From: a virus
Lineage: Duplodnaviria > Caudoviricetes
Reading direction: 5' to 3' (one strand)
Virus record (IMG/VR): IMGVR_UViG_3300044708_000117
Coordinates: 1 to 24,437 of that record
Length of the DNA stretch: 24,437 nt
The notes beneath the pieces are model-generated. The model did not search any database. It saw only the letters and a program-made list of their open reading frames with translations, and was not told where the DNA came from. The position numbers and the translations under genes were made by a program. Of this stretch, positions 85 through 24,293 are shown piece after piece (position 1 is the first letter of the stretch; each line of letters begins with the position of its first letter).

Positions 85-741
85 ATGGATGCACAAGCCC
101 GCCTCGCCCTTCTCGCCAAGAGCCTCGACGCCGATGAGCCGCTGCATGTGCAACGCGCCGAGGCGCTCGCCGATGTAGTCGAAGAGGATCGCACCGCTCG
201 CTTCATTGCGAGCGACGCGAGCGTCGATCGATACGGGGATGTCATCGAGCCGCGCGGGTGGGATCTCGCCAACTTCCGGCGCAATCCCGTTTTCTTGTGG
301 ATGCACTCCCAGTATCAGCCCATCGGCACGATCAAAAAGATCGGGCTTGAGGATGGCGCGCTCATGGCGACGGTGCGCTTCTATGATCCCGGCGACTCGA
401 AGATCGCCGACGATCTATGGCGCCTCGTGAAGAAGAAAAAGCTGCGCGCCGTCTCGGTCGGCTTCACGGTCAAGGGCGCCGAGGATTACGAATACATTCG
501 CGACGACACCGATCGCGTGACGGGCATCCGCTACTTGCGGCAAGAGTTGCTCGAATTGTCATTAGTTAGCGTGCCCGCGAATCCCAACGCGCTACAGGTA
601 GCGCGCTCGATGGGCCTCCCCGATGAACTCATCCGCCAAGCGCTGCCGCTCGATGCGTCAATCTCAGAGCAGCACCTTGCAATGCGTCGCCGCGCTTCCG
701 CGCTGCGGCTCGCGGGCATCACCAAAGCAGCGCCGCGTTAG
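85..741 (+). CDS. HK97-family prohead (maturation) protease
   Basis: Motifs DRYGDVIEPRGW, NPVFLWMH..PIG, LRAVSVGF and ELLELSLVSVPANPNA are typical of HK97-type proteases. GGAG at 72-75 favours ATG 85 over TTG 76. Confidence 0.93.
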   Translation: MDAQARLALLAKSLDADEPLHVQRAEALADVVEEDRTARFIASDASVDRYGDVIEPRGWDLANFRRNPVFLWMHSQYQPIGTIKKIGLEDGALMATVRFYDPGDSKIADDLWRLVKKKKLRAVSVGFTVKGAEDYEYIRDDTDRVTGIRYLRQELLELSLVSVPANPNALQVARSMGLPDELIRQALPLDASISEQHLAMRRRASALRLAGITKAAPR

Positions 742-779
742 GCCTCTCTATCTACCCCCAAACTATTGAGGCGAGTGCT

Positions 780-2186
780 ATGAAAGTTTCAGAAAGAATT
801 GCGGACCATACCAAGCAGCGCAAGGGCAAGACCGACGCGCTCGATGAATTGCTCAAGTTGAGCGAGACCGAGGGCCGCGCCCTCACGGGCGACGAGCAGC
901 AAAGCTTCGACGAGATCGAGAAGAGCATCGGCGACATCGACGAGACGATCACCCGACTCCGCGCGCACGAGGCGATCATCGCGCGCGGCGCGAGCCCGAT
1001 CATCCGCGAGAGCCCGCGCATCGAGGTGGCGAGCGCACCGAAGGGCGCACGCTTCGCGCGCATGTGCCAAGCGATTGCCGCCTCGCGCGGCAATCTGCCG
1101 CAGGCGCTTGAGATCGCCAAGATGCAGTGGCCCGAAGATAAAGACATGCACAGTGTCATCCGCGCGCAGTCGCTCGGCATCACGCGTGCAGCCGTCGCCG
1201 CTGCCACTACGACCGATCCGGCATGGGCGGGCGCATTAGTTAGTGCTCAGACGATGTCGGGCGAGTTGATTGAACTCGTGATGAAAGAGACTGTCATCGG
1301 GCAACTCACGCAAGTGCGGCGCGTGCCGTTTAACGTGCGCATCCCGCGCCAACTCACCGCCGTCGGCTCGGCGAAGTGGGTCGGGCAAGGCAAGAGCAAG
1401 CCGCTCGGTAAGGGCACGTATGACTTCGTCACTATTCCATGGGCGAAAGCCGCGCTCATCGTGGTGATCACCGAAGAGCTTGCGCGCTTCTCGAATCCGG
1501 CAGCCGAGGGCTTGATGCGCGATGCGTTAGTTAGGGGCATCACCGACTTTCTCAACGATCAATTCGTCGGCTCGGGCATCGCCCCCGTCGTGAATGAGTC
1601 GCCCGGTGGCATCACTAACGGGCTGCCCGTCGGGCAGACCTTCCCGAGCAGCGGCGAGGCGCTCGCGAATATCCAATACGATCTCACGCATGCGGTCTCA
1701 CTACTGCACGAGTTCAACGCACCGCGCGCACCGACGTGGATCATGCACCCGCAGAATCTCATCTACATCGGCAGCGTGCTCAACTCGTTTGGCTCGCCGG
1801 CTTTCCCGTCGGCAGCTAACAAAACGCTCATGGGCTATCCAGTGATCACCTCGGCGCACCTCGACACCGATGAGATCATCCTGCTCGATCAGGCGGGTGT
1901 GCTGCTCGCGAGCGATGACTCGGTGACGGTCGACGTATCGCGCGAGGCCTCGGTGCAGATGGATGACTCGCCCGTGACACCGGCCACCCCGTTAGTGAGT
2001 TTCTGGCAGCAGAACCTCATCGGCTTGCGCGGTGAGATGTATAGCTACTGGCAGCGCGCTCGCGATCAAGATGTCGTGATGATCACGGCAGTCGGATACG
2101 GGCAGACACCGCCCGCCGTGGTGCTCGGCACACCGGCGAGCAACGCATCGAAGCAGAGCGCATCCCCTAATAAGGCTGCGGTCTAG
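780..2186 (+). CDS. HK97-fold major capsid protein with N-terminal coiled-coil delta domain
   Basis: Helical N-terminus, AKWVGQGKSKP, VITEELARFSNPAAEGLMRD, WIMHP, VSFWQQNLIGLRGE. Lies directly after the protease. GAGG RBS at 768-771. Confidence 0.93.
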   Translation: MKVSERIADHTKQRKGKTDALDELLKLSETEGRALTGDEQQSFDEIEKSIGDIDETITRLRAHEAIIARGASPIIRESPRIEVASAPKGARFARMCQAIAASRGNLPQALEIAKMQWPEDKDMHSVIRAQSLGITRAAVAAATTTDPAWAGALVSAQTMSGELIELVMKETVIGQLTQVRRVPFNVRIPRQLTAVGSAKWVGQGKSKPLGKGTYDFVTIPWAKAALIVVITEELARFSNPAAEGLMRDALVRGITDFLNDQFVGSGIAPVVNESPGGITNGLPVGQTFPSSGEALANIQYDLTHAVSLLHEFNAPRAPTWIMHPQNLIYIGSVLNSFGSPAFPSAANKTLMGYPVITSAHLDTDEIILLDQAGVLLASDDSVTVDVSREASVQMDDSPVTPATPLVSFWQQNLIGLRGEMYSYWQRARDQDVVMITAVGYGQTPPAVVLGTPASNASKQSASPNKAAV

Positions 2187-2194
2187 CCTCGATA

Positions 2195-2232
2195 GCGGGC
2201 CCCGGGGTGAGAGCGACACCCCGGGCGCCCGC
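2195..2232 (+). promoter_or_regulatory. Strong GC stem-loop between capsid and portal (possible attenuator or mRNA-stabilising hairpin)
   Basis: GCGGGC-CCCGGGGTG / loop AGAGCGA / CACCCCGGG-C-GCCCGC. No U-tract follows. Confidence 0.55.
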
Positions 2233-2244
2233 CCCTAACTAGCC

Positions 2245-3681
2245 GTGAATCTCTTCGATGAAACTCTACTAAGGCTCGTGCGCTGGCGCACGCGGGCGAG
2301 CATGACTTCGATGCCCGCGCCGGCTAGCTACGGTGGCAACGCGCTGCCGCCACTCTCGCACGGCTCTTACGTGCACGAGCCATTCGCCGGGGCATGGCAG
2401 CAAAATAGAGAATGCTTCGGCCCGAGTGGCATCTTCTCGGCGGTGTATGCGTGCATCGCGATCATCGCAGGCGATCTCGCCAAACTACCGCCGCGCATTC
2501 GCCGCCGAAAGAGCGACGGCTCGAAGAGCGACGCCGAGAAGCACCCCGCCTCGACGGTGCTTTACTACCCTAACAAATACCAGACGCGTGTCGATTTTTG
2601 GGGCCAGTTCATGTCGAGCGCGCTTTTCACCGGGAATACATATGTATTTCTCGCGCGCGATGGCACCGGGGTGATACGTGAGATGCACATCCTCGACCCG
2701 CGCCGCGTCTCGGTGCTCATGGGCGAGGATGGCTCGATCTTCTATCGCATCGGGCAAGAGCGGCTCGCCGAGTTGCTTGAGAGCGATGTGATCCCAGCGC
2801 GCGACATCCTGCATCATCGATTGCTCACGCTCACGCACCCGCTCATCGGTCTGACACCGCTGTACGCTGCCGGTGTCTCGGCGATGACGGGGCAAACTAT
2901 TCAGCAGAATAGCTATGCGTTTTTCGCGAACATGAGCCGCGCTTCCGGCGTCCTAACTAGCCCGGGGAAAATCTCCAACGATCTCGCCGCCCGTCTAAAA
3001 ACCGAGTGGGATCAAAACTTCAAGGGCGGCAGCATGGGCCGCACGGCGGTGCTCGGCGAGGGCATGAAGTGGGAGCCACTCACCATCTCGGCAGCCGACG
3101 CGCAACTTATCGAGCAACTTCGATGGAGTATCGAGGATGTCGCGCGCTGCTTTCGCGTGCCGACCTACATGCTCACCGATGCGAGCAAGGTGAGTTTCAA
3201 AAACACCGAGCAACTCGCGCGCAATTACTACTCGCAGACTTTGCAGTATCACATCGAGAGCATCGAGGCGCGCATCGATCAAGCCTTCGAGTTAGCCGAG
3301 GATATTTACTGCGAGTTCGATCTCTCGGCATTGCTGCGGATGGAACTCGACGCGCGCATGGCTGCTTATCAGACCGGCATTAACGCCGGCATCCTAACTA
3401 TCAACGAAGCGCGGCGCATGGAAGAGCTTGAGCCGAAGGCTGGCGGCGACGAGCCGCTCGTGCAAGCGCAGTATCGCCCGCTCTCGATGGCCGGGCAGCC
3501 GATGAACATGAGCGCCGCGCCACCGCCCGAGCCCGACGCCTCGGGCGATACGGGCCTCGACGCCGAAGATCCGGCGCTCGATGACAGCACCGACGAAGCC
3601 ACGCTCGCCGACGAAGAGCTTAACGCGCTCACGCTGCGCGCCCGCGTGCGCGCTCGCGCTGCCGAGAGGTTAGCCGCATGA
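2245..3681 (+). CDS. HK97-family portal protein
   Basis: SAVYACIAIIAGDLAKLP, GNTYV, LIGLTPL, AVLGEGMKW, EDVARCFRVP, GILTINEARRME..GGD. Acidic C-terminal tail. GTG start is uncertain (alternative ATG at 2302). Confidence 0.93.
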   Translation: MNLFDETLLRLVRWRTRASMTSMPAPASYGGNALPPLSHGSYVHEPFAGAWQQNRECFGPSGIFSAVYACIAIIAGDLAKLPPRIRRRKSDGSKSDAEKHPASTVLYYPNKYQTRVDFWGQFMSSALFTGNTYVFLARDGTGVIREMHILDPRRVSVLMGEDGSIFYRIGQERLAELLESDVIPARDILHHRLLTLTHPLIGLTPLYAAGVSAMTGQTIQQNSYAFFANMSRASGVLTSPGKISNDLAARLKTEWDQNFKGGSMGRTAVLGEGMKWEPLTISAADAQLIEQLRWSIEDVARCFRVPTYMLTDASKVSFKNTEQLARNYYSQTLQYHIESIEARIDQAFELAEDIYCEFDLSALLRMELDARMAAYQTGINAGILTINEARRMEELEPKAGGDEPLVQAQYRPLSMAGQPMNMSAAPPPEPDASGDTGLDAEDPALDDSTDEATLADEELNALTLRARVRARAAERLAA

Positions 3682-4754
3682 AAGCCTTGCAAGTCGTCGA
3701 GGTGATCACCGATGCAGTGAGCGACGCGGTGCGCGAGTTACTGCCGCGCCTCATCGCCGAGCACCTCGAAGCGCGCCTCGCTGCCACCGTCACCCCGGCG
3801 CTCGCGCTCGTCGAGCGTGCGCAGTCGACGGTGCACGAGCGCATCACCGATATGCAGACCGACTTCGCGGTGCGCTGCGCCGCGCAGAGCGATGCGCTGA
3901 CAAATAGTTGGCAGCGGCAACTCGACGGGCTGCGCGGCATCATCGCCGAGCAACTCGAAGCGCGCCTCGGCGCCACGATCACCCCGGCGCTCGATACGCT
4001 GCGCCGCGATGTCGAGCGGCTCGGGCCGCACTTGCTCGATGCGAGTGCGCTCGATGAGACGCGCCGCGACTTCGAGACGCGCCTCGGCGCGCTGCGCACC
4101 GATATGCGCGTGATCGAGGCGCACACGGGCGAGCAGATCGGCTCGGCGGTGCGCGAGGCGCTCGACAAAGCCGTCGCCGCGATGCCCGCCTCGCCGGGCC
4201 CACCGGGCCCACCGGGGCGCGCTGGGCGCGACGCGGTCTTTACCCCGCCCGTGCTGTACAAGGCGGGCTCGCTGTACACGCACGGCGCCCTCGTGCAGCA
4301 CCGGGGCGGGGTGTGGCATGCCAACGTCGACACCGACGCCGAGCCGGGCGAGCCGTGCGCCGGCTGGGGGCTCGTGCTCGATGGCTGCGAGCCGCTGCGC
4401 GTCGAGGCATGGGGCGAGGCGGGCGAGTTGGCGCTCGTGTATCGCTACGCGTCGGGCACCGTGAAGCACATCGCGCTCGGCTTTCGCCCGATGCAGCACG
4501 TCGGCATCTACGACCATGGTCGCGCGTACCTCGTGAATGATTGCGTGACGTGCGATGGCTCGGTGTGGCTGGCGCGCTCGATGAGTTGTGAGGTGAAGCC
4601 GGGCACCGATGAGGGCGCTCGCGCGTGGCAGTTGATCGTCAAGCGCGGGAAAGATGGGCGAGAAGGCGCGCCCGGGCCGCGCGGTGAGCCCGGGCCCCAA
4701 GGCACCCCCGCCCCGGCGCCGCGCTCGCGCAAGATCAACGGGGCGGCACCGTGA
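3678..4754 (+). CDS. Portal-adjacent virion protein with helical repeat, collagen-like GXY stretches and two aromatic beta modules
   Basis: ATGA overlap with the portal stop. PGPPGPPG and GAPGPRGEPGPQG stretches. Modules YKAGSLYTHGALVQHRGGVWHA and YDHGRAYLVNDCVTCDGSVWLA. WQLIVKRGKDG. Confidence 0.7.
   Translation: MKALQVVEVITDAVSDAVRELLPRLIAEHLEARLAATVTPALALVERAQSTVHERITDMQTDFAVRCAAQSDALTNSWQRQLDGLRGIIAEQLEARLGATITPALDTLRRDVERLGPHLLDASALDETRRDFETRLGALRTDMRVIEAHTGEQIGSAVREALDKAVAAMPASPGPPGPPGRAGRDAVFTPPVLYKAGSLYTHGALVQHRGGVWHANVDTDAEPGEPCAGWGLVLDGCEPLRVEAWGEAGELALVYRYASGTVKHIALGFRPMQHVGIYDHGRAYLVNDCVTCDGSVWLARSMSCEVKPGTDEGARAWQLIVKRGKDGREGAPGPRGEPGPQGTPAPAPRSRKINGAAP
3752..3993 (+). repeat. 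Imperfect ~53-bp direct repeat (3752-3804 / 3941-3993)
   Basis: Encodes IAEHLEARLAATVTPAL and IAEQLEARLGATITPAL, 189 nt apart. Confidence 0.85.
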
Positions 4755-5440
4755 AGGGTGAATCGATCACCGCCCGCATACGTGCTTCGCGCCCGAGCAC
4801 GCGCGCGACCATGCCGACGCTCGACGAGATTAAAGACGCGCTCGGCATCCCGCCGAGCGACACCTCGCTCGATCAAGCCATCGCCGACGCTTTCGCCGCG
4901 ACGATCGCGATCATCGAGGCCTATCTAGGCCGGGGCATTGCATGGGGGCCGATGCTGCAGACCTTCGAGCCGGTCGATACGCGTAACCCCAAGCTTCTGC
5001 TCTATCGCTTTCCCGTTACCACGGTGCGCACGGTGACGGTCGACGACGCGCTCGTCGAGGGCTGGCGCGTGCTCAGTGCGCAAGGTGTGATCGAGTGGCG
5101 CGGGCCTCACTACTGGCCACACACCGAGTGCGGGCGCGAGCCCGTTGTCGCGATCGACTACGACGGGGGCTATGCCGACGACGCGTGGCCCGCCGATCTC
5201 ATGGATGCAATCATGCGCGCCTTCTACGCGCGGTGGCATGCGACCGGCGACACCGGCAACACCGCCGATATCAGCACGGGCGGGGCGATCACCTCGCTCT
5301 CGGTCGACGGCTCAAGCATCGCCTTCGGCGAGCCCGGCGTGAATGCTGCCGAGTTCGGCGGCAAGCCGTGGCCCCCGGAATTGCAAGGCGTCGTGGCGAT
5401 CTTGGAGCCCTACCGGCAACGCCTCGTGACGGGGGTGTGA
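4751..5440 (+). CDS. Head-tail connector/adaptor (HK97 gp6-like)
   Basis: TLDEIKDALGI..D, IEAYLGR, L.RFPV, YDGGY...PADL, ILEPYR. GTGA overlap with the upstream stop (alternative ATG 4811). Confidence 0.8.
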   Translation: MKGESITARIRASRPSTRATMPTLDEIKDALGIPPSDTSLDQAIADAFAATIAIIEAYLGRGIAWGPMLQTFEPVDTRNPKLLLYRFPVTTVRTVTVDDALVEGWRVLSAQGVIEWRGPHYWPHTECGREPVVAIDYDGGYADDAWPADLMDAIMRAFYARWHATGDTGNTADISTGGAITSLSVDGSSIAFGEPGVNAAEFGGKPWPPELQGVVAILEPYRQRLVTGV

Positions 5441-5441
5441 G

Positions 5442-5768
5442 GTGAGCGCGAACTCGATCAGCGCCGCGATTCGCACCTTGCAGAATGGCATCAAGCTACT
5501 CGGCAAGTCGGTGCAGTTTTTCGAGGCGGGCGCGATGAGCGGGCGCACGGTGCGCGCTCGCGTGGTGTACTTAAGTGCCGCAGAATTGCAGAACTCCGTC
5601 GAGCAATACCCGATGCGCGTCACCCTCGACGCGCGCGACTTCGCCACCCGCGCACCGCAGAAGGGCGACACCTTCGTGATCGATGATGCGCGGCGCGGCA
5701 TCATGCAAGTCGCCGAGTCGCACATCGGTGAGACGCTCGTGCAGTACACATGCGGGTGCAGCGGATGA
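5442..5768 (+). CDS. Putative head-closure/head-tail joining protein
   Basis: 108 aa and beta-rich, with PQKGDTFVID. Position right after the adaptor. Confidence 0.6.
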   Translation: MSANSISAAIRTLQNGIKLLGKSVQFFEAGAMSGRTVRARVVYLSAAELQNSVEQYPMRVTLDARDFATRAPQKGDTFVIDDARRGIMQVAESHIGETLVQYTCGCSG

Positions 5769-6187
5769 GCACGCTCGCAGTACGCGACGCTTTTCGCGCG
5801 CAACTATCTACCATGCTCGTGCCCGAGGGCTTCGAGTACATCGAGAGCATCAATCGCGCGGAGTCGACCAAGACGCTGCCGCTCAAGTGGTACACCCTCG
5901 ACTTCATGGCGAGCGATGACAATCGCGCCGCGCTCGGCGTGCCGACGCTCTTCCGCGAGAGCGGGCGCGTTGTCGTGGTGATCATGACACCCCAGCAACA
6001 ACTAGATAGCGAGGCCCTCGCCGCTGCCGAGATCGTGCGCAATTCAATGTGCAATTGGTTCGATGCGACCGGGCAGTTACGCGTGCAGAGCGCGCAGCCT
6101 CCTATCGATCTCGACGGCGGTGATTTTCGCGGCGCGTTTTATGGCATCACGGTGGATCTTCTCTACCAGTACGACCGGATCGTTTAA
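5765..6187 (+). CDS. Putative tail terminator protein
   Basis: ATGA overlap at 5765-5768. RESGRVVVVIMTP followed by a helix, as in tail terminators. Directly precedes the tube gene. Confidence 0.65.
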   Translation: MSTLAVRDAFRAQLSTMLVPEGFEYIESINRAESTKTLPLKWYTLDFMASDDNRAALGVPTLFRESGRVVVVIMTPQQQLDSEALAAAEIVRNSMCNWFDATGQLRVQSAQPPIDLDGGDFRGAFYGITVDLLYQYDRIV

Positions 6188-6199
6188 GGAGTAGTTAGA

Positions 6200-7312
6200 A
6201 TGGCTGTATCAGCGGACCTTCTGCGACTCGGCATAGTCCGAGAAGCGACGCCGGGGGTGACTCCCGCGACACCGGCGTTTCAATTATTGCGGGTAACTTC
6301 CGAGTCGCTGTCCTATCAACCTGAGACGCAACTCTCCAACGAATTAAATCCCGCTCGGCAAGTCAGCGATATTATTGTGACCGGCGGAAATAGTTCGGGC
6401 GAGTGCGGCATGGAGTTGTCGAGTAACCCGGGCTTCGAGTTGCTGCTCGAAGGCGCGCTCGGCAATCTGTGGGGGGGCGACGGCTTAGGCGATGATCTGT
6501 GGGTGAGTGGCTTACTACTCACGCACACCATCGAGAAGCGCTTCACCATCGACGCGGCGAATGTCGACCCGCTCAAGCAATACGAATTTAATCGATTCGT
6601 GCGCGAGATCGTCGATCAGATGGTGCTCACCTTCACGCCGGGCGGGCCGGCGACGGGCTCTGCATCGCTGCTCGGCGGTGCCATGACCCGCGACGAAGTC
6701 GATCTCACGGGCGCCACCTATCTAGATGCCGGGCAACTGCCGGTGATGGTCGGCGCCGGGGTGATCCCGATCACCTTCACCATCGAAGGCATCGATTACA
6801 CGACATGGTGCGTCTCGAATCTCGTCGTCACGTTGCGCAACAACGGGCGCGCCATCATGTGCCTCGGGCAAGACGTATCGAGCGAGACGGTGCTCGGGCG
6901 CTTCGAGTGCGAAGTCGCCGCCGAGATCTACCTCGCCGCCGACACGAGTGTCGTGATGGATGCGTTTTTGAATCGCACCGAGATTGCGATGAAATTCGAG
7001 GTGCACGACTCGCTCGGCAACGGCTATCAATTCACCTTCCCGCGCGTGCGCGTCTCGGCGTGCACCGAGGTGGCGAGCGGCACGAATCAAGATGTGATCA
7101 TGAGCACCTCGCTGCAGGCGCTCGTCGACACTGCGACGGTGACGCCGACGCTGCCGGCGACACCCTTCGATGTCGATAGCTGCATCCTGATCAAGCGCGT
7201 GCACGTCACAACGCCATGGCCCGAGGGCCCGCCGACGTTGCGGGAATTAAACGCGACGACGGGGGCCGCACTTAGCAGCGCGCCGGTAACACTGCACGAG
7301 GGCACCCCATGA
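6200..7312 (+). CDS. Major tail tube protein
   Basis: Strong RBS AAGGAG at 6186-6191. EATPGVTPATP..LRVTSESL, TIEKRF, GNGYQFTFPRV resemble siphovirus tube proteins. Precedes the chaperones. Confidence 0.85.
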   Translation: MAVSADLLRLGIVREATPGVTPATPAFQLLRVTSESLSYQPETQLSNELNPARQVSDIIVTGGNSSGECGMELSSNPGFELLLEGALGNLWGGDGLGDDLWVSGLLLTHTIEKRFTIDAANVDPLKQYEFNRFVREIVDQMVLTFTPGGPATGSASLLGGAMTRDEVDLTGATYLDAGQLPVMVGAGVIPITFTIEGIDYTTWCVSNLVVTLRNNGRAIMCLGQDVSSETVLGRFECEVAAEIYLAADTSVVMDAFLNRTEIAMKFEVHDSLGNGYQFTFPRVRVSACTEVASGTNQDVIMSTSLQALVDTATVTPTLPATPFDVDSCILIKRVHVTTPWPEGPPTLRELNATTGAALSSAPVTLHEGTP

Positions 7313-7707
7313 GTGCGCAGCCTAACGCCTATCGCTTCGGCAACTTCAACGACTGGCGCACCGATCCGGCGCTCTGCGCCAACGGGGTGCCCTACGATGC
7401 CAAGGGCGGGCGCACGTTGATAGTTAGACGGGCGGGCGGCATGAATCGCAAGCTCATGGTCGCGATCTCGGGGATCTCGCACGAGGATGAGCCCGCCTTG
7501 ATGCGCGCCTACGCCGAGCACGTCGTCGTCGGGTGGGAGGGTGTACTCGACGCCGACGGTGAGCCGATCCCGTACAGCCCCGAGGCATGCTTCGCGCTCT
7601 TCGAGTTCGCGCCCGAGTTGTTTCTTTCCATGCTGGTATTCGTCGGCGATCGGACTAACTACGGCGCCGAGAAGTTGCGGGAGTCGAAAGAGAATGTAAA
7701 AACCTAG
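7309..7707 (+). CDS. Tail assembly chaperone (gpG-like)
   Basis: YAEHVVVGWEGVLDADGEPIPYSPE..LF..PELF. Follows the tube gene and ends GTA AAA ACC TAG. Confidence 0.85.
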   Translation: MSAQPNAYRFGNFNDWRTDPALCANGVPYDAKGGRTLIVRRAGGMNRKLMVAISGISHEDEPALMRAYAEHVVVGWEGVLDADGEPIPYSPEACFALFEFAPELFLSMLVFVGDRTNYGAEKLRESKENVKT

Positions 7708-8081
7708 CCCGGTGGCAGACGCAAGTCGGCGCGCACCTCGGGGCACTGCGCGCCCTCGAAGCCACCGGGGTGCGGGTGCCGATGCTGCACGATGAGCCCG
7801 TGCTAGCACCGCGCGAAGAGATGGCGATTGTCGCTTTTCGTGACTTGCGCACCGAGCGGCAGATAGGCGTCAACGGGGTGGGCCCGATCCCATGGCGCGC
7901 CGTCGCGGCATGGTGTGATCGGTATGAGGTATTCGAGGCGGAAGAGTTGATCGAACTCGTGCAGACAATCGACGCGGAGTGGCTAGCTAGTGGGACAACT
8001 GAAAGGCCTACCAATCGAGGGCATACCGATAACGCGCCGGCTGAAAAACGGCGCGGAGTTGTATCAGGTGTTCGCCGCTGA
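7698..8081 (+). CDS. Tail assembly chaperone gpT-like segment, probably expressed as a -1 frameshift fusion (gpGT)
   Basis: The -1 frame is open across the gpG stop: KNLARWQ...AFRDLRTERQIGVNGVGPIPWRAVAAWCDRY...IDAEWL. A5 run at 7698-7702. No good RBS before GTG 7770. Confidence 0.75.
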   Translation, partial: KNLARWQTQVGAHLGALRALEATGVRVPMLHDEPVLAPREEMAIVAFRDLRTERQIGVNGVGPIPWRAVAAWCDRYEVFEAEELIELVQTIDAEWLASGTTERPTNRGHTDNAPAEKRRGVVSGVRR

Positions 8082-8826
8082 TGCGAAGGCGCTCGATACG
8101 GCGGGCACGGTGTGGATCAAGGATGTCGCCGGGCCCAAACATAGCGACATACTCAACGCCGGCAATCCCAAGTACCACACGACCGAGATCGACGGCACGA
8201 CGGGCAAGAGCGGCAACTCGCGCAGCGGCTTTCGCCCGGGCACGCTCGCCGCTGCGCACTCATCCGTGCGCTATCTATATCTCGGGCGCCAACTCGCCGA
8301 GCTAGCCAACGTGCTGCGGCCCGTGCTTCTGCAGGTGATCAACGAGACGTTTCCCAACGCCAAGACGCGCACCCTCGCACGAGAGTGGGCATGGTACGTG
8401 CAGCGCGGCGCGAGCGGCAAGAAGGGCACGGGCAAGAGCACGCCGAGCGTGCGCGTCGGTATGCGCGTGCCGCCCGACCTAACTATCTACGACGTGCTCT
8501 GGCTCGCACCCGAGGGCCGCGAGCCGGCGAGTTATGCGTGGTTTGCTAACTACTACGCGAAGAAGCGCTTCGGCTATAAATATAATATGCGCAAGCGCAA
8601 GAAGATCGGCAAGTATGTGCTGCGCAAGAAGTTGCGCGGGTACGCGTCCGAGGCTGCCATGCGCATGCGCGCCAAGAAACTCCCCGGTGTGTCGATCATG
8701 GCGATGTTTGTTAGAGAGCAACTCACCGGGCCCATTGCCGCGAGCCGACCGAAGCCGGCGAAGTGGGGTGTGCCCGTGATTCGCGTCGCCTTCGATCAGA
8801 TGCTCAAGACGGTCATAGACCCCTAA
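7990..8826 (+). CDS. Basic hypothetical protein; possibly a displaced tail-completion/neck protein
   Basis: 278-aa K/R-rich ORF with GGAG at 7976-7979 and phage-like codon use. Fills the gap between the chaperones and the tape measure gene. Confidence 0.6.
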   Translation: MGQLKGLPIEGIPITRRLKNGAELYQVFAADAKALDTAGTVWIKDVAGPKHSDILNAGNPKYHTTEIDGTTGKSGNSRSGFRPGTLAAAHSSVRYLYLGRQLAELANVLRPVLLQVINETFPNAKTRTLAREWAWYVQRGASGKKGTGKSTPSVRVGMRVPPDLTIYDVLWLAPEGREPASYAWFANYYAKKRFGYKYNMRKRKKIGKYVLRKKLRGYASEAAMRMRAKKLPGVSIMAMFVREQLTGPIAASRPKPAKWGVPVIRVAFDQMLKTVIDP

Positions 8827-8838
8827 CTAGGTGACACC

Positions 8839-10881: not shown

Positions 10882-11282
10882 TGGGCGCCCTCCCCGCATG
10901 GAATGAAGCCGCCTTCGGCTGCCTCATCCGCGACGCGGCGCAGTTTCGCTCGCTCATGCGCACCGCGATCACAGCGGGGGTGCCGATGCCCTTCGTCTCG
11001 CGCAAGGGTGACACCTCGGCATCGGTCGAGCTTGCCTTCGGCATCGAGTTGGATGAGGCGGGCTTCGAGTCTTGGGTGCAGTGGTACACCACGGATCTTG
11101 CCGAGGGCTCGCTGCCCTTTACGCTGCCGCTGCCATGGGGCACCGCGCAGATCGTCGCGCGTGCGTGCCTCGTCGGCAGTTGGAGCGCGACGCACATCGC
11201 GGCGGGGCACTGGGCGGTGAGCGGCACGGTGCAGATCGAGCGCGCCTCGCTGCCGCGCTTCTCGGGGGGCGCCGATGCCTGA
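10881..11282 (+). CDS. Distal-tail (Dit/gpM-like) protein 1
   Basis: TGATG overlap with the tape measure stop (GTG 10878 is an alternative). FESWVQWYTTDLAEGSLPFTLPLP. Confidence 0.6.
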   Translation: MGALPAWNEAAFGCLIRDAAQFRSLMRTAITAGVPMPFVSRKGDTSASVELAFGIELDEAGFESWVQWYTTDLAEGSLPFTLPLPWGTAQIVARACLVGSWSATHIAAGHWAVSGTVQIERASLPRFSGGADA

Positions 11283-16313: not shown

Positions 16314-16330
16314 CAATCATGGAGAAATTA

Positions 16331-16531
16331 ATGGACGATGACAAAGTACAACGCGCACCGGGCGCCTCGACGTGCTGCGATGCTGCCGGGCGGATGTGTG
16401 CGCTCGCGATCAAGCCCGTGCCGCGTGAGGCGCTGATCAGAGCAGCCGTCGCGCGTGGCGATGGCACCGAAGAGCAGATGCGTGCGCGCGTCGATGACTT
16501 GCTCGCCTCGGGCTTGCTCATCGAAAGTTAG
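16331..16531 (+). CDS. Small hypothetical protein (66 aa)
   Basis: GGAG at 16321-16324 before ATG 16331. Fills the gap between the tip and fibre genes. Confidence 0.7.
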   Translation: MDDDKVQRAPGASTCCDAAGRMCALAIKPVPREALIRAAVARGDGTEEQMRARVDDLLASGLLIES

Positions 16532-16543
16532 GAGGGCTCGACA

Positions 16544-19500
16544 ATGGCAATCTATCTAGGCCGCTATGTAATTCTCACCGATCCGGCGAGCGTGTGGAGC
16601 GCGACGAATCCGCTGCTCTTAGATGGCGAGCTAGGTGTCGCCGACGTAGGCGGTGCCGCGCCCGTGCTCAAGGTCGGCGACGGGGTGCGCCATTGGTCGG
16701 CGCTGCCGGCGATCGTCGGCGGTGGCGGTGGCAGTGGCAGCGGTGCTAACTATGTGCCGGGCACGACGACGACACTGCCGCCCGGTAGCTTCGCGACGGT
16801 GGTGATCGATAACACCGTCGACCCGCCGACGATTAGCTTCGGCATCCCGCGCGGTGATCCCGGCCCGGCGAACTCGCTCGGCATCGGCACCGTGACGACG
16901 GGCGCGCCGGGCTCGCCGGCTGGCGCGAGCATCACGGGCACGGCGCCGAGTCAGACGCTTAACCTCACCATCCCCACCGGCGCCACGGGCGCCACGGGCG
17001 CCACGGGCCCCGATGGTATGACCGGCGCGACCGGCGCCACCGGCCCCGCTAACGTGCTCGACATCGGCACCGTTACCACGGGCGCGCCGGGCTCGCCCGC
17101 TGCCGCCACCATCACGGGCACGTCGCCGACTCAGACGCTTAACCTCACCATCCCCACCGGCGCGCAAGGGCCCGTCGGTCCCACCGGGCCGACGGGCCCG
17201 AGCGGCCCGGCTGGCTCGACAACGCTCGCCGATCCCGGCTCGCCCATCGGCCTAACTATGGTGCCCGGCGTGAGCGCCTTCGGCATGCGAGCCGACGGCG
17301 CGCCCGCGCTCTCGCAAGCCATCGCGCCGACGTGGACCGGGCGGCATATCTTCTCGTTGAATGGTGGCGGCACTGCCGCTGCGATCCGGCTGGTATCGAC
17401 ACAACCATCGATCAATTGGTTCGATCAGTCGGTCGGCACCGATGCGCATTCGTGGGATATCTCCGCGAATAGCGGCACACTTTCGCATCGCATTATCGAT
17501 GACGCTAACAGTGCGGTGCGTGCCTATCTAAAGGTTACGCGCAGCGCTTTTTCAATTGCTGCCCTCGACTTCGGCAACACTACCGACAATCCGGCGTACA
17601 ACTTTCTCGGCACGGGCGCCGCGACCTTTAACGGGATCGTCGATCTACTCGGGCCGCTGAAAGCATCGAGCGTCGAGGGCATCTCGGGGCAGGTGCTATC
17701 CAGTCAAGGCGCCGGGCTGCCGGCGATATGGCGCACGTCGAGCGGTGGCTCGATCGAACTCGGTTACAACTTCTCGACATCGGTCGGCACGGCTAACCCG
17801 GGCTCTCAGAAGATGTCGCTGAATAGCGCGGTGTATTCATCCGTCACGGTGGCAGTGTTCAACTCCACCGCCTTCACCAACTTCGATGCGAACACCATCC
17901 TCTCACTACTCGCAGTCGGCAATCGCTTCTATATTCAGCAGCGCAACGACGCGAGCAAGGCGGTGGTGTACGAAGTCACCGCGCCGGGCACTAACAATAC
18001 TGGATACTGGACAATTCCAGTTAAGTACATCGATTCGCGCGGGACTATCTTCCCGGCGAATGCCGATCTCAATTGCGTTTTCATTCTCTCGGTGTCGGCG
18101 TCGTCGCTCGCGAACCCTACCGCGCTCGTCGGGCTCACCGCCGTCAACGGCTCGGCGACGACGGGCATGCGATCCGATGGTGCGCCCGCACTCTCGCAAG
18201 CCATCGCGCCGACGTGGACCGGGCTGCATACCTTCTCGCCGACGCTCGGCTATATCTATGTTAGCGCCTCGAATGCGTCGCTGCGATTGAATTCCACGGG
18301 GGCGCCGGCTAATAAAAAGAAATGGGATTTCGTGGTGCTCGATGCCGACGGCTCGCTGCAGTTTCGCCACCTCGATGACACACCGACCGACAGCAAGGTG
18401 TGGCTCGCAGTCACCGCGAGCGGCAGCGGCGCCGAGGTAGATAGTATTGTTTTCGGCAATATCACCAACAATCCTTTCTACACCTTCAAGGGCTCGGGCC
18501 TCGTGACGTGGGAAGCCAACGCCATCCAACACAAAAAGCCCGGCGCGACGCATTACATCGAGACCGTCGCCGGCACCTCGGTGAATCCCGGCTATATCCA
18601 ATGGTTCAACGGCGGCACGCGCCTCGGCTATATCGGCTATTACAACGGCTCGACGCGTCTAACTATCAATGGCGACGCATGGGGCTGGGATTTTCTCGGC
18701 ATCCCGCCGACCATCGCCGGGGCGCCGATTGTCACGCTCTCGGGCGGACAGTTGTTGTTAGGGTATGGCACCGTTGCGGCGCCGACCTACTCTTTCGCGG
18801 GCCAGCCCGGCGCGGGTATGTCATCGGCGGGCGATGGCTCGCTGCGCTTCTCAACGTCGGGAGCGATCAATCTATTTCTAGACACGAGCGGGAGTCGCAT
18901 CGTCGTCTACAATAGTTTGCAGAGTGTCTACGACGGCACGGCTGCCGCGCCTAGCTACACGTGGACAGCGCAAACTAACAAAGGAATGTACAACGCGGGC
19001 ACGGATGCGATCGGCTTTTCTGCCGGTGGCATACAGGTGGCGCAATTTTCCACCGCCCTAATTAGCTTTCCTTACAATGCCGTGCGGGCGCCGCAGGGGG
19101 TGCAGAGCGCGAGCGGCTTCACTAACAACGCGGGCACGCATGGGATCGTGCCCAACTCGGGCGCGCTCACCTACGGCAGCGTTTACGCCATCGGCACGAA
19201 TGCGGCATACGCCGGCTATGCCATCAACGATGGCACTCAGTTTCCGACGTTTCTATCTAATGGCTCGTCGATGGGTATCTTCCTGCAGGGCACAGAGTCA
19301 TCGTGGCTGCTCGCCCGCGTGGGTGCACTCGCGGCAAAAACCGATTACAACTTCGCGATGCCCTCGTGCGTGGTAGGTAGTCCGACGAGCGGCAACATGG
19401 GCGCCGGCACGATCAACGCGCAGGGGCTCTACGTCAACGGGGTGGCGGTGAGTTCGGGCAGCGGCGCCGTCGGCGCGAATCCGAGCAGCGGAGTCGGCCT

Positions 19501-20215
19501 CACTACCGGCAACGGTGTGGCGACGACGTTCATGAGAAGCGACGCGACGCTCGCGCTCTCGCAGGCGATCGTGCCAACGTGGACCGGCGCGCACACCTTC
19601 AACGCTCAAGCGATCTTCAAGGGTGGCAACAATACCTCGCCGGGCTGGGGCTTCTTCGGCGACGAAGATACCGGCTCATTCCGCAACGCCGACGGCAGCG
19701 TCTCATTCACGAGCAACGGGACCGCGAGCCTAGCTATCACGCTCGGACGTACCTCGGTGTTAGGCGGTGGCACGGGCGCTGCAAATACTTCATGGGTCGA
19801 GTTTAAGGATGTGACCGGCGCCGTGATGGGATACGTCGGCGATCTCAGCAGCGGCGACAGCAATATCTCGCTCAACGCCACCGTCGCGGGCGCGAATATC
19901 ACCCTAACTGCCGGCAGCGGTGGCGTGATCAATATGGTGAGCGCCGCGCAGGCGCCGAGCTTTACCACGACATCGGCCCGCGCGGTGAAGCGCGAGACCG
20001 GCGCACCTCCTAAGCCGGCGAGCATCCTCGCCCGGCTGCGCCCGATTCTCTACCGGCTGCTCGCCGGGGATGATCGAGAGCAGCTAGGCCTCATCGCCGA
20101 AGAGGTGCGCGAGGTGTGCCCGCAACTCTCAGACGGCAAGACCGTGGCCTATGACCGGCTCGCGATCTTGCTGCTCGCCGCGTGGCAAGACGAGCACGCG
20201 CGGGCGGTGGCCTAA
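16544..20215 (+). CDS. Long tail fibre: Mtd-N/hyaluronidase-like N-terminal anchor, collagen repeats, repeated modules, C-terminal S74 intramolecular chaperone
   Basis: RBS AGGAGG. WSATNPLLLDGELGV...LKVGDGV..WSALP anchor. GATGATGATGP repeats. GDEDTG-type motifs. TSARAVK...LRPILY...GLIAEEV..VCP...VAYDRL at the C-terminus. Confidence 0.9.
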   Translation: MAIYLGRYVILTDPASVWSATNPLLLDGELGVADVGGAAPVLKVGDGVRHWSALPAIVGGGGGSGSGANYVPGTTTTLPPGSFATVVIDNTVDPPTISFGIPRGDPGPANSLGIGTVTTGAPGSPAGASITGTAPSQTLNLTIPTGATGATGATGPDGMTGATGATGPANVLDIGTVTTGAPGSPAAATITGTSPTQTLNLTIPTGAQGPVGPTGPTGPSGPAGSTTLADPGSPIGLTMVPGVSAFGMRADGAPALSQAIAPTWTGRHIFSLNGGGTAAAIRLVSTQPSINWFDQSVGTDAHSWDISANSGTLSHRIIDDANSAVRAYLKVTRSAFSIAALDFGNTTDNPAYNFLGTGAATFNGIVDLLGPLKASSVEGISGQVLSSQGAGLPAIWRTSSGGSIELGYNFSTSVGTANPGSQKMSLNSAVYSSVTVAVFNSTAFTNFDANTILSLLAVGNRFYIQQRNDASKAVVYEVTAPGTNNTGYWTIPVKYIDSRGTIFPANADLNCVFILSVSASSLANPTALVGLTAVNGSATTGMRSDGAPALSQAIAPTWTGLHTFSPTLGYIYVSASNASLRLNSTGAPANKKKWDFVVLDADGSLQFRHLDDTPTDSKVWLAVTASGSGAEVDSIVFGNITNNPFYTFKGSGLVTWEANAIQHKKPGATHYIETVAGTSVNPGYIQWFNGGTRLGYIGYYNGSTRLTINGDAWGWDFLGIPPTIAGAPIVTLSGGQLLLGYGTVAAPTYSFAGQPGAGMSSAGDGSLRFSTSGAINLFLDTSGSRIVVYNSLQSVYDGTAAAPSYTWTAQTNKGMYNAGTDAIGFSAGGIQVAQFSTALISFPYNAVRAPQGVQSASGFTNNAGTHGIVPNSGALTYGSVYAIGTNAAYAGYAINDGTQFPTFLSNGSSMGIFLQGTESSWLLARVGALAAKTDYNFAMPSCVVGSPTSGNMGAGTINAQGLYVNGVAVSSGSGAVGANPSSGVGLTTGNGVATTFMRSDATLALSQAIVPTWTGAHTFNAQAIFKGGNNTSPGWGFFGDEDTGSFRNADGSVSFTSNGTASLAITLGRTSVLGGGTGAANTSWVEFKDVTGAVMGYVGDLSSGDSNISLNATVAGANITLTAGSGGVINMVSAAQAPSFTTTSARAVKRETGAPPKPASILARLRPILYRLLAGDDREQLGLIAEEVREVCPQLSDGKTVAYDRLAILLLAAWQDEHARAVA
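16882..17163 (+). repeat. ~102-bp direct repeat (16882-16983 / 17062-17163) with (GGCGCCACG)x3 at 16979-17005
   Basis: IGTVTTGAPGSPA.A.ITGT.P.QTLNLTIPTG occurs twice, 180 nt apart, separated by collagen triplets. Confidence 0.92.
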
Positions 20216-20216
20216 C

Positions 20217-21002
20217 ATGGCGACGGGCTTCGTAGTGAGCGGGCGCGGCGATCTCGATGCGCTCTTCAAGGCGCGCACCACGGCGGCAGCGGCGAACACG
20301 GGCTTCATCGCTGCCGGCGCCGACATCGCGCAGAAGTATGAGCAGCGCGGCGCGGCGACTGCCATCGCGGCGACGGGCTTTAAGTCGGGCGCCACCGATC
20401 TAGCTTCTATCTTTCAAGACATCAACTACTCGCCGCCCTTCACCCCGGTGACGCGCACCTACACGACGGCAGTCACGGGCGCGACCGAGACCGTGCCCGC
20501 AGGCGCAACGTCGTGCGTTGTCACGGCATGGGGTGGCGGTGGCGGTGGCGGCATGAAGTTGACATCGACGGGCGGTGGCGGTGGCGGTGGCGGGCGCGTG
20601 ATCAAGACGGTCGCGGTGAGCGGCGGGCAAACCTTCACCTACACCGTCGGCGCATTGGCCCCGGGCACGGTGACACAAGGCACGAGCGGCACACCGGGCA
20701 AGGTGTCCACGGTCAGCAGCACCGCCCCATCGATGAGCATCAATGCCAACGGTGGCGGGGCGGGCACGCAAGTGCCCGGGGGCGGTGTGGCGGGCACCGC
20801 AGCGGGCGGCGACACCATGACGAGCGGCACCGCCGGACAAGCTACCGGCGCAGGCGGCGCGGGCGCTGGCGGTGGTGCGGGCGGCACGGGCGACGGTGGC
20901 AACGGCACGGCACCCGGTGGCGGTGGCGCGGGCGGCATTAGTTCGGGATCGGGCCATAGTGGCAACGGCGCAGCCGGTCAAGTGCAATTTGCGTACACCT
21001 AA
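20217..21002 (+). CDS. Glycine-rich putative fibre-tip adhesin/receptor-binding protein
   Basis: ATG 1 nt after the fibre stop. N-terminal TGF...DL repeats, then WGGGGGGG and GGGGAGG..GNGAAGQV motifs. Confidence 0.7.
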   Translation: MATGFVVSGRGDLDALFKARTTAAAANTGFIAAGADIAQKYEQRGAATAIAATGFKSGATDLASIFQDINYSPPFTPVTRTYTTAVTGATETVPAGATSCVVTAWGGGGGGGMKLTSTGGGGGGGGRVIKTVAVSGGQTFTYTVGALAPGTVTQGTSGTPGKVSTVSSTAPSMSINANGGGAGTQVPGGGVAGTAAGGDTMTSGTAGQATGAGGAGAGGGAGGTGDGGNGTAPGGGGAGGISSGSGHSGNGAAGQVQFAYT

Positions 21003-22618: not shown

Positions 22619-22902
22619 AGAATCCCCCGCGTGATGGCTGCGACTTTGCCCTCGTCTGCACCCTGCAGATCGATGAGCCGAAACTTGCGCCGCTCGCCCT
22701 TCGGTAGTTTGGCGAGTGCGTCGGCGGCGAGCGTCTCGATGGTGCACGAGGTGTGCACCGTGCGCTCGATCATCAAGGTGCGATCCCCGAGCCCGCCGCA
22801 CACATGGCAGATCACCACGCGACGCACCGAGTGCGCGCTCGCCTCGGCGGGCATGTTATCGACGCGGCGCGCCGGGCGCGGCGCTTGCTTGGCGCGGCTC
22901 AT
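22615..22902 (-). CDS. Hypothetical protein with possible Zn-binding CxxC...HxxC
   Basis: CHVC...HTSC. ATGA overlaps at both ends. Confidence 0.7.
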   Translation of the reverse strand: MSRAKQAPRPARRVDNMPAEASAHSVRRVVICHVCGGLGDRTLMIERTVHTSCTIETLAADALAKLPKGERRKFRLIDLQGADEGKVAAITRGIL

Positions 22903-23501
22903 GGCGCACCCGCTGCCGGCGTCTGCGCCGGCTTCGAGGTGGGCGCGGGCGGTGGTGTCACCGCCCGCTGCGCCTCGCTGCGCGCCATACGCTTGAGCGT
23001 GGCGCGCAACTTCTTCACGGCGGTGCGCGCTCGCTTCTCGCGCGACTCCCATCGAGCGAGCCGCGCCTCGATGCTGGCGCGCTTGGCGTCGCGCCGCGCC
23101 TCGGGCGAGGTGCTCTTCTTCACCGGCGCGAGCGAGCCGGCGAGCCAGCCTTGCGCGACGACGTGCATCGCCATCTCGCGCTCAAGCCGAGCATGCGAGA
23201 TGTGATGGGGCGCGAGGTGCGGGTGCCGGTGGCGGAATACGCGGTGCGCTACGTCGTGCGTGAGGCGCTCCCACCCTTTCGCGAGCGTGACATTCGTCTT
23301 ACTCGTCGCCCAGCATCGGCGAGCGCGTGAGGGCAGCGGCGCCGGGGTAGTTTGATGGGGAGCACCGAGGGCGATAGCGCCGAAGGTGCGCGTCAGACGC
23401 CGAGCCGCGCGCAGTGCTTCGGCCATCGTGAGCGGCGGGCGCGTGACGCTCGCCCACACCTCGCCGACCGTGGCATATGCGCCCGTGTGTGCGGCGCTCA
23501 T
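22899..23501 (-). CDS. Hypothetical His-rich protein (200 aa)
   Basis: GWERLTHDVAHRVF..RHP...PHHISHARLE and a basic coiled-coil C-terminus. ATGA overlaps at both ends. Confidence 0.75.
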   Translation of the reverse strand: MSAAHTGAYATVGEVWASVTRPPLTMAEALRAARRLTRTFGAIALGAPHQTTPAPLPSRARRCWATSKTNVTLAKGWERLTHDVAHRVFRHRHPHLAPHHISHARLEREMAMHVVAQGWLAGSLAPVKKSTSPEARRDAKRASIEARLARWESREKRARTAVKKLRATLKRMARSEAQRAVTPPPAPTSKPAQTPAAGAP

Positions 23502-23758
23502 GACAGCACCCCGGCAGCGGTGAGCACCGCGACTATCTGCTCGCGGTATTTCGGCTTGAGCGACGGGATCGTGCCCACCATCCGCAGAAGGTCGGCCATC
23601 GCGGGCGCCGCAGCGATGAGGCGCGCATTCGCTTGCGCCTCGCCGGGCGCCATATGCGCTTGCTGTAGTGCCGCGTCGGCGATGTCGAAGTGCATCGAGG
23701 TGATCGTGTAATGGCCGTACAGATTCCACGGGCCGGGGGTGTGCTTCGGGGCGCTCAT
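23498..23758 (-). CDS. Conserved phage hypothetical protein (HTPGPW...ANARLIAAAP family)
   Basis: Contains the widespread phage motif KHTPGPW...EAQANARLIAAAP. ATGA overlaps at both ends. Confidence 0.8.
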   Translation of the reverse strand: MSAPKHTPGPWNLYGHYTITSMHFDIADAALQQAHMAPGEAQANARLIAAAPAMADLLRMVGTIPSLKPKYREQIVAVLTAAGVLS

Positions 23759-24258
23759 GAGCGCACCGCCTTGCCCGCGTTGAGGGTGGCACCGATGTGC
23801 TCGATCTCGCGCAAGACGTGCTCGCGCGCAGCGGTGCACTCTTCCGGGATATCGCAGAGCAACTCGCCGAGTTGATACTGCGCCGAGGCGAGCGATGCGT
23901 GCAGCGCTGCCTCGCGCTCGGTGGCGTGCGCCGGGGCGAATACGACGCGCGGGGTGAGGCGCGAGCGCATGGCCCACTTGATCGCCGAGGCGAGTGCGAA
24001 GAGGCGCTGCGCGAGCGGGTGCACGGTGCCACCCTGCACGATGATCTTCGCGACGTAGTCGAGGATGTCATCGGCGTCGGCGGCGATGCTGGCGCCGTGC
24101 GTGCGGGTGAGGTGCTCATCGGTCTCGGCGAGCCCGTGGCAGCACTCGCACATGCGCGCGAGGGCATGGTCGGCGTCGCGCTCTTCGCTGCAATGCAGAT
24201 TGCAGAGCGAGCACGCGTAAACCTGTACGACGGGGGCGGTGTTATTCGTGGTGTTCAT
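23755..24258 (-). CDS. Hypothetical protein with N-terminal Cys cluster (possible Zn finger)
   Basis: CSLC...CECC. AGGA RBS about 10 nt upstream. Confidence 0.7.
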   Translation of the reverse strand: MNTTNNTAPVVQVYACSLCNLHCSEERDADHALARMCECCHGLAETDEHLTRTHGASIAADADDILDYVAKIIVQGGTVHPLAQRLFALASAIKWAMRSRLTPRVVFAPAHATEREAALHASLASAQYQLGELLCDIPEECTAAREHVLREIEHIGATLNAGKAVRS

Positions 24259-24293
24259 TTGTCAGTGTCCTATCTAGTGGGAGTGGGAAGTTA

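Follow-up and report, generated by a model that had tools for sequence, protein, structure and literature searches.

A highly iterated heptamer in the genes of a temperate siphophage clade is a putative docking site for a conserved, probably host-encoded protein

Results

The window analyzed here is the entire virus record IMGVR_UViG_3300044708_000117 (24,437 bp; GC content 64.5%, not the ~66% given in an earlier note on this DNA), and it is the virion module of a temperate siphophage with hosts that are probably Steroidobacteraceae-like. A 7-bp word, CTANCTA (TAGNTAG on the opposite strand), is repeated throughout this module. We give about an even chance to the reading that the word, refined to 5'-T[A/T]G[T/A/C]TAG-3', is a putative docking site on double-stranded DNA for a single conserved DNA-binding protein, probably one encoded by the host.

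On the + strand, genes for a prohead protease (76/85-741), an HK97-type major capsid protein (780-2186), and a portal protein (2245-3681), recognized by PHROG and Pfam matches, precede the connector, tail tube, chaperone, tape measure, tail tip, central tail, and fibre genes (3678..21002), which hold most copies of the word. Small leftward genes, including one for a helix-turn-helix (HTH) protein (22005-22412/22532), occupy the - strand between 21613 and 24258, and the word persists there at 21990, 22269, and 24270. A basic 278-amino acid protein encoded at 7990-8826, between the tail chaperones and the tape measure, is common to the phage clade and sister phages described below, matches no family, and is perhaps a long tail-completion protein. 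All 30 bins of positions 1-20000 are partly covered by contigs from four soil runs, which rules out an assembly artefact; among the 40 variant rows listed of 279, one divergent block abolishes the site at 17252.

The window contains 54 matches to the word, 40 as CTANCTA and 14 as TAGNTAG on the + strand. The earlier note, which had drawn attention to the word, listed 53 of them at coordinates that are all real and missed a TAGCTAG at 7984 that overlaps the copy at 7983; its tally of the middle base (CTANCTA orientation) stands for A (22), T (20), and C (3), and G is 9 instead of 8. CTAACTA (TAGTTAG) occurs 22 times between 563 and 21162, on the + strand at 2235, 2953, 3394, 7655, 8479, 8546, 8823, 9514, 10747, 16746, 17252, 18659, 20999, and 21156 and on the - strand at 563, 1237, 1528, 6192, 7421, 10253, 10550, and 12964. 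The 20 copies of CTATCTA (TAGATAG), between 748 and 24276, lie at 748, 4921, 5804, 6718, 8271, 8483, 9682, 9967, 11693, 12163, 13613, 13861, 16552, 17524, 19253, and 24270 (+) and at 6003, 10058, 18438, and 22269 (-), and the 9 copies of CTAGCTA (TAGCTAG), between 2324 and 21996, at 2324, 7983, 15174, 15798, 16173, 18951, 19730, and 21990 (+) and at 7984 (-). The sites at 15798 and 16173 fall within a duplicated stretch of a single tail gene and hence are not independent. CTACCTA is a weak class with 3 copies between 13986 and 19380 (13986 and 14517 on the + strand, 19374 on the - strand).

Copies within the window genes number 46 of the 54, whereas protein-preserving codon shuffling gives 2.06 (maximum 7, n = 1000). 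Dinucleotide shuffles of the window yield a mean of 2.6 (maximum 7, n = 100) against the 54 observed, Markov models of orders 1-4 predict 2.3, 3.0, 5.8, and 14.7 copies, and CTANCTA is the top word of the form 3-N(0-15)-3 in the window, with a log10 P of -49 compared with -21 for the next unrelated word. The strong enrichment claimed in the earlier note thus withstands codon, dinucleotide, and Markov nulls, and its observations that the copies are built from rare codons and that one lies inside the ELSLVSVPA motif of the protease (TTA-GTT-AGC at 562) were borne out.

The same codon-shuffling approach was used to delimit the word. For the window genes, observed and expected counts are 17 and 0.3 for CTAACTA, 18 and 0.8 for CTATCTA, and 6 and 0.3 for CTAGCTA. 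When eight high-density sequences were pooled, these three core words, CTA[A/T/G]CTA, were enriched 20-28-fold (82 versus 3.0, 64 versus 3.1, and 42 versus 2.1, respectively), and CTACCTA was enriched merely 3-fold (13 versus 4.3-4.4). An additional variant, CTAACAA (TTGTTAG), has 10 copies in the window between 1816 and 19128 (1816, 2570, 13105, 16310, 17991, 18975, and 19122 on the + strand; 8708, 14806, and 18755 on the - strand), with 9 versus 0.6 in the window genes and 74 versus 4.2-4.5 in the pool (18-fold). This stronger variant had been overlooked in the earlier note, which gave CAAACTA/TAGTTTG, a minor variant whose eight coordinates between 759 and 23354 (759, 2481, 2893, 13233, 18913, 18971, 22705, and 23348) were given correctly and whose enrichment is moderate (6 versus 0.7 in the window genes; 18 versus 4.4 in the pool). 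The word family consists of CTA[A/T/G]CTA plus CTAACAA. Written as TAGTTAG, it prefers T at -2 and A, then T, at -1, requires the G, accepts T, C, or A but hardly G at +1, and ends in TAG.

The word is independent of reading frame and strand. Genic copies are distributed 18/8/8 over the sense frames, and 12 lie in the sole antisense frame that is free of stop codons, so that every usable frame class is occupied. The 40:14 strand ratio stems from coding constraint, because TAGNTAG fits only one of the three frames on the coding strand. At protein-compatible positions, occupancy is similar on the two strands (15 of 68 versus 10 of 57 in the window; 21 of 54 versus 15 of 56 in the relative G005), fully non-coding sites split 41:50, and we saw no strand polarity beyond coding constraint and no gradient of the word along complete genomes. 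Junction or non-coding sites, between 748 and 24276, are those at 748, 2235, 6192, 8823, 16310, 20999, 21156, 21990, and 24270; several hold a stop codon or directly precede the next start codon, and the site density in the window is 3.95 per kb in non-coding DNA versus 2.01 per kb in coding DNA.

The word marks one phage clade. In a portal tree of 22 rows, it is present at 0.26-3.1 per kb in a clade of 13 rows (support 96/92), the window belonging to a dense subclade, and at 0-0.23 per kb in the 9 rows outside. Of 72 additional capsid loci, L026, L055, and L028 alone showed a clear excess, and the best capsid match to a cultured relative is 36%. A scan for the word together with the parS palindrome described below returned 91 loci, with an excess in clade members alone. 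A triple-word scan returned 15 loci, none of the clade, four of which have an excess made of tandem repeats; known clade members were missed, so its sensitivity is low.

The positions of the word are conserved even though silent sites are nearly saturated (four-fold sites 0.47 identical between the window and its relatives, versus 0.41 at random). The earlier note had called for a check of synonymous turnover in homologues; against 12 relatives, which are not independent of one another, 30 of 79 protein-compatible comparisons at window sites find a site in the relative too, compared with 21 of 216 at compatible positions that are non-sites in the window (Fisher P = 1e-7). Turnover is large as well, with 30 of 230 site comparisons conserved overall, and the share of protein-compatible positions that is filled ranges from 5-8% in G001-G003 to 27% in the window and 40% in G005. 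Together with the occupancy of all four usable frame classes, this conservation supports the proposal that selection acts on the DNA and not on the protein.

Copies of the word exclude one another. In 11 sequences, 29 pairs lie 5-150 bp apart where 92 are expected (same strand, 21 versus 57.6; opposite strand, 8 versus 34.5). The deficit is found at 5-60 bp (same strand, 6 versus 22.2; opposite strand, 1 versus 13.3) and at 61-150 bp (15 versus 35.4 and 7 versus 21.2, respectively), and beyond 150 bp the counts are as random. In 20 sequences, two of which share 21% of their 25-mers, there are 2 pairs instead of 36 at 20-60 bp, about half the expectation up to 160 bp, and the full expectation by ~180 bp; in the window alone, 1 pair instead of 7.8 lies 5-60 bp apart. 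The deficit survives a null of draws from protein-compatible positions (9 versus 31 and 34 versus 56), and two control word sets are without a comparable deficit, the one low cell being ATCGAG on opposite strands at 5-60 bp (2 versus 6.4). CTAACAA also keeps away from core sites (41 versus 72.6); no other tested variant does so significantly, including the CAA[ATG]CTA class (25 versus 34.2). Back-to-back double sites on both strands, CTAGCTAG, are present 25 times. There was no helical phasing or preferred pair distance, save for pairs 15-16 bp apart beside parS, and CTAAC...GTTAG pairs, which resemble integron attC recombination sites, are not more avoided than the reverse order. Because the exclusion acts in either orientation, a strand-specific process is excluded. 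Closely spaced operators behave as a single target for a sliding protein (PMC4402528), and a second site close to a first may likewise add little; coating or looping would also fit the exclusion zone.

Relatives of the window place the word beside host-type cis elements. Three complete relatives, G001-G003 (41 kb, with terminal repeats), encode a tyrosine integrase, tandem HTH_17 and XRE-like proteins, VRR-NUC and HNH nucleases, and a terminase. Among 72 called proteins and 118 further open reading frames (ORFs), mostly from G001 and G002, no polymerase, primase, helicase, single-stranded DNA-binding protein, initiator, recombinase, or methylase was recognized; for G003, 3 proteins were scanned and the rest was judged by homology. 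Atlas searches gave an HTH-type lead for a 220-amino acid protein and nothing named for an 84-amino acid protein. A conserved protein of 505-517 amino acids near terL (G001:C1:35287-36840, G005:C1:985-2502), found in part of the clade only, has no Pfam or PHROG match.

Between terL and the protease gene, clade members carry GTTYCACGTGRAAC, a palindrome that is clustered beside dnaA in host-family genomes and that we take to be parS. It directly precedes a TTGAC-type late promoter (G002:C1:21098, G005:C1:6229, L001:9063, and others) throughout the clade and in some word-negative sisters; in the relatives, parS and promoter sit just upstream of the protease gene, which in the window corresponds to the region before position 1. 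The word lies at most 40 nt upstream of parS, in either orientation, in 11 of 14 related records (0.9 expected), and downstream of it in 0 of 14. In the early region, an element with CG runs and CTA/CTG-CTA-CAG triplets is flanked by two DnaA-box-like 9-mers (G004:C1:5286-5438, G002:C1:7174-7380, G001:C1:8520-8720, L136:5340-5535). It resembles by eye a box-spacer-trio layout (PMC8287927) and is a possible host-DnaA origin in phages that lack replication genes. In G001-G004 and L136, a copy of the word is located 15-48 nt away from the right DnaA box, which is not the case in L133. The late promoter and the putative origin, as well as terS and the end of int, have conserved copies of the word beside them.

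The earlier note had also called for a count of the word in the predicted host. One clade contig (L111/G006) is binned in a gammaproteobacterial metagenome-assembled genome, and a kin element, L137, whose integrase is 58% identical to that of the clade, abuts a gene 79% identical to Steroidobacteraceae proteins; a Steroidobacteraceae-like host is therefore probable. CTADCTA occurs in 61 of 61 host-family genomes at 0.002-0.1 per kb compared with 2.1 per kb in the window, so it is not a word of the host chromosome. There is no CTANCTA in the host dnaA/oriC/parS region, none of 401 host-order genomes contains the clade integrase at E<=1e-60, and no tRNA att target was seen in 20 loci.

In host chromosomes, the word is scarce outside integron boxes. 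Of the 39 non-phage copies of CTAACAA in G006, 24 lie in four co-oriented arrays, about 500 bp apart, and are attC sites, and the host CTAACTA adjoining the integron integrase gene intI is attI. Near-identical attI copies head four cassette arrays of this genome (G006:C1:222066, C11:39794, C11:568522, C19:596878), and only a single intI, a broken one, was found. A gene for the integrase IntI scored over cut-off in 159 of 401 host-family genomes and 144 of 401 genomes of the class, tallies that include genomes flagged unpublished (G684 and G599 in the family; G794, G1062, G1050, and G896 in the class), which enter into none of the other results. From 51 loci we obtained 23 distinct attI candidates, a few of which may be misassigned, with a search pattern that left -2 and -1 free; their R box plus 2 nt reads TAGTTAG in 12 and TTGTTAG in 2. 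Among 145 attC sites from 21 arrays, R'' reads TTGTTAG in 76 and TAGTTAG in 23. The first and second words of the phages, TAGTTAG and TTGTTAG, are thus the modal attI and the modal attC R'' boxes, and the phage base preferences at -2 and -1 follow attI. The GTTAG core of the attI R box (G|TTRRRY) is present in two of the four main phage words. Words with GTT and with GAT are enriched on both strands, matching the GWT core of secondary sites, and GCT fits only GNT: the genomic sites of IntI1 are GWT, double-stranded, and strand-unbiased (bioRxiv 2022.09.11.507474), and GNT has also been cited as an IntI site core (PMC4618277).

L137 itself (10830-14410) is a satellite-like or defective element with a clade-related integrase and terS, and with four host-type attC cassettes next to the integrase gene, at a junction with Steroidobacteraceae-like genes; its attC sites match profiles built from the G006-family arrays. 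These host-family profiles also matched the host control L389, and in 39 other phage sequences found nothing at E<0.2. An attI site is a single copy beside intI with cassettes after it; the copies of the phage word are dispersed, no IntI was recognized among the relatives' proteins, and no cassette insertion was seen at phage sites.

Discussion

We propose, at about even confidence, that a conserved host protein is captured along the whole phage genome through dispersed docking sites. A second site within reach of a first would add little, so that selection would spread sites at least ~150 bp apart. Among the roles offered in the earlier note, genome-wide binding sites for a protein fit best. 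The reader would not be one of the rapidly evolving regulators that the phage itself encodes: the same word persists throughout the clade, while the tandem-HTH and XRE proteins are merely 27-52% identical to those of G004, and both proteins also occur in word-negative sisters; a host reader is favored for these two reasons.

The integron integrase IntI of the host is the best named candidate, although we hold this identification only tentatively, and some other host protein is a comparably tentative choice. As a reading of IntI, the word would be an R-box half-site without an L box, binding the enzyme and rarely recombining, and it could act as a sponge or docking lattice when the SOS response induces prophage and IntI together. 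It is conceivable, with the same reserve, that a clade leaving its DNA transactions to the host wrote ~40 to 150 such bind-only half-sites through its genes, at spacings that maximize capture, its replicating DNA either soaking up IntI against the on-demand shuffling of anti-phage cassettes or borrowing its strand exchange in place of a missing recombinase. Some integron cassettes confer phage defence, and IntI can reshuffle them when induced by the SOS response (bioRxiv 2024.07.02.601719).

Several observations weigh against the IntI reading or the broader one. An inverted L box lies 5 nt upstream of the R box at 23 of 615 phage sites, with 22 expected, and the clade phages yielded no attC. 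Although TAGTTGG is a genuine attI box (2 of 23), it shows no enrichment in the phages (3 versus 8.0), whereas TAGTTTG is enriched and is not an IntI box; a protein that reads two TWG repeats would fit this pattern better than IntI does. The enrichment of TAGCTAG is 20-fold despite a GCT that falls outside GWT, and common attC R' words are enriched merely 1.9-fold. The RY expected at +5/+6 is found at 0.31 versus 0.22 and 0.40 versus 0.20, and also in word-negative phages (0.38 versus 0.25, P = 0.05). IntI gives no reason for the fixed place of the word beside parS or DnaA boxes, and any gain from titrating it would be conjectural. The match is post hoc, and the chance of it, ~1% when many motif types are allowed for, is a rough guess and not a computed value. 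IntI is common across the class, yet no unrelated phage with a dispersed excess of the word was found in our low-sensitivity scans. The host assignment rests on one binned contig and one kin element, and the sister G442 has the replication-less parS/DnaA-box layout of the clade, yet lacks the word.

The strongest alternative, which we regard as doubtful, is a phage-encoded regulator (the XRE repressor, the tandem HTH_17 protein, or an unannotated small protein) that would silence or organize the prophage in the manner of stoperators. In 14 of 15 sequences, the site density is higher in non-coding DNA (up to 15-fold), the conserved copies adjoin the control regions named above, and the word is limited to one clade and rare in host chromosomes; proteins of 91-94 and 84-88 amino acids are found in word-positive genomes only, the latter being absent from L136. 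The two HTH proteins, however, differ in their recognition helices while the word stays constant, and the sites are not oriented with transcription, span just 7 bp, and are mostly intragenic. In mycobacteriophage L5, stoperators are dozens of 13-bp, non-palindromic sites that are oriented with transcription, mainly intergenic, and bound by the phage repressor. The word shares with them the dozens of non-palindromic sites across a temperate phage and the higher density at gene junctions, but it is unoriented, shorter, inside genes in 46 of 54 cases, and invariant while the repressor-like protein diverges.

We think it improbable that the reader is a conserved virion or packaging protein of the phage (the portal, a terminase with an N-terminal AT-hook-like segment, or the tail-completion protein) that recognizes the word in the course of packaging, condensation, or DNA ejection. 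Such proteins are conserved enough for an invariant word (portal, 74-86%), the even, orientation-free spacing would suit a ratchet or condensing role, and TerL has a weak AT_hook match (E 0.003). Word-negative sisters, however, have the same module, with portals 59-75% identical and a GRPRKW-type TerL start, and there is no gradient of the word along complete genomes. To our knowledge, dispersed sequence reading by portal-, terminase-, or tail-completion-type proteins is not known.

There is less again to be said for the word as the target of a nicking or base-modifying enzyme, whether it produces nicks of the T5 type or is a host methylase, that would benefit the phage. Avoidance of close pairs would be expected if adjacent nicks were harmful, and restriction pressure on the genomes is strong, many words being absent altogether. 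T5-type nicks fall on one strand of the virion DNA; here, the strands are equal, and the 25 tolerated CTAGCTAG double sites would yield double-strand breaks. The sole nucleases recognized are the HNH protein beside terS and VRR-NUC, and a phage enzyme in the base-modifying role put forward in the earlier note is not supported, because no methyltransferase was recognized in the complete relatives (ORFs of G001 or G002).

It is very improbable that the copies are priming sites for host DnaG in a clade without a primase. Both proteobacterial and firmicute DnaG prime on d(CTA) (PMC2978363), and the three sisters G443-G445, which have their own CHC2 zinc-finger/VapE module (a VapE helicase, and the CHC2 zinc-finger gene recognized in G444 and G445), have 0, 6, and 0 matches in 31 kb. 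Priming is strand-specific, however, yet exclusion between opposite strands is as strong as on the same strand; proteobacterial DnaG prefers CTG, which already occurs about every 100 nt per strand; CTAACAA has no second CTA; and G442 lacks both a primase and the word.

A Chi-like recombination signal is no more tenable. Lambdoid phages such as LLS and MD8 accumulate Chi when they lack their own recombination genes (PMC12315714), and no recombination module was recognized here, so that in both cases a phage without DNA-transaction genes accumulates a short cis word inside coding DNA. In those Rec-less phages, Chi is polar, clustered at the right end, and abundant in the host (PMC12315714), whereas this word is not polar, not clustered at an end, scarce in the host chromosome, and surrounded by an exclusion zone of ~150 bp; in addition, recB scored over cut-off in none of the 5 hosts searched. 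Mutational or repair bias without selection is largely refuted: the turnover of sites (30 of 230 comparisons conserved) is real, but precursors one step away from the word are rare without being depleted, sites keep their positions more often than compatible non-sites would suggest, and mutual exclusion is not expected from mutation.

Three other candidates were tried and rejected. Upstream of lexA, 4 of 5 host genomes have a LexA box of the E. coli type (the stretch from the fifth came from the wrong side). For IHF, no TTR arm was present in 641 flanks, and CTATCAA does not avoid core sites. A XerD-like GTTAA is not enriched.

DNA uptake sequences are highly iterated short words that are selected and over-represented in a cellular chromosome. 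The HIP1 word of cyanobacteria is likewise highly iterated, in all reading frames, selected, and non-randomly spaced (PMC5861425). The word described here differs from both in being non-palindromic, in lying on a phage and not a host chromosome, and in a spacing effect at 20-170 bp instead of 10-90 kb. The self-recognition signals of the Chi, HIP1, or uptake type that the earlier note suggested are thus not sustained, the host-family chromosomes not being enriched and the word not being strand-polar. Compared with integron attI and attC, the likeness lies in the top two phage words, which are the modal host-family boxes, in the GAT that is allowed as in GWT, and in double-stranded, strand-unbiased use (bioRxiv 10.1101/2022.09.11.507474, PMC4618277). 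The phage sites differ in having no L box, attC hairpin (R''-L''-L'-R'), cassette, or intI, in their dozens of copies inside essential genes, and in accepting GCT and TAGTTTG and not TAGTTGG. The word therefore resembles those of Chi-rich phages and HIP1 as a selected iterated word, fails their defining tests, and is neither attI nor attC. Dispersed selected phage words are known (Chi, stoperators), but for this one we found no earlier description: a literature search that did not cover subscription journals returned no report of a CTANCTA/TAGNTAG word or of IntI-box iteration in phages.

Readers of dispersed selected phage words are usually unknown; the match to the integron R box names a concrete candidate protein. 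Three independent signals define the word (enrichment, position conservation, and mutual exclusion), of which the ~150-bp exclusion in either orientation is a physical constraint on the reader and sorts true variants from passengers. If IntI were the reader, the phage would counter an adaptive defence platform by DNA sequence alone, and anti-defence or enzyme piracy would be encoded purely in synonymous codons. If it were not, the clade would still be one of 41-kb phages apparently running on host cis elements (DnaA boxes, parS, and a third site).

Some features of these genomes appear separate from the word. The sister G442, a circular 32-kb genome, carries a CsrA-like gene and a GH71 glycosyl hydrolase gene (L236:4763-4954 and 5776-7161). 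GAGCTC (GAGCTCG) and CTCGAG are in excess in G001 and G442, about 3-fold after codon shuffling, which is a phenomenon distinct from the word. In the window, G001-G005, and G442-G454, many words are fully avoided (CCGCGG, CCWGG in G004, GAGGAG, GGGCGT, and CCTCCG), which points to strong restriction pressure that includes non-palindromic sites. Finally, an unrelated phage (L496:48-675, L499:4839-5574) carries an iteron-like array of 27-bp tandem repeats upstream of a primase-helicase gene.

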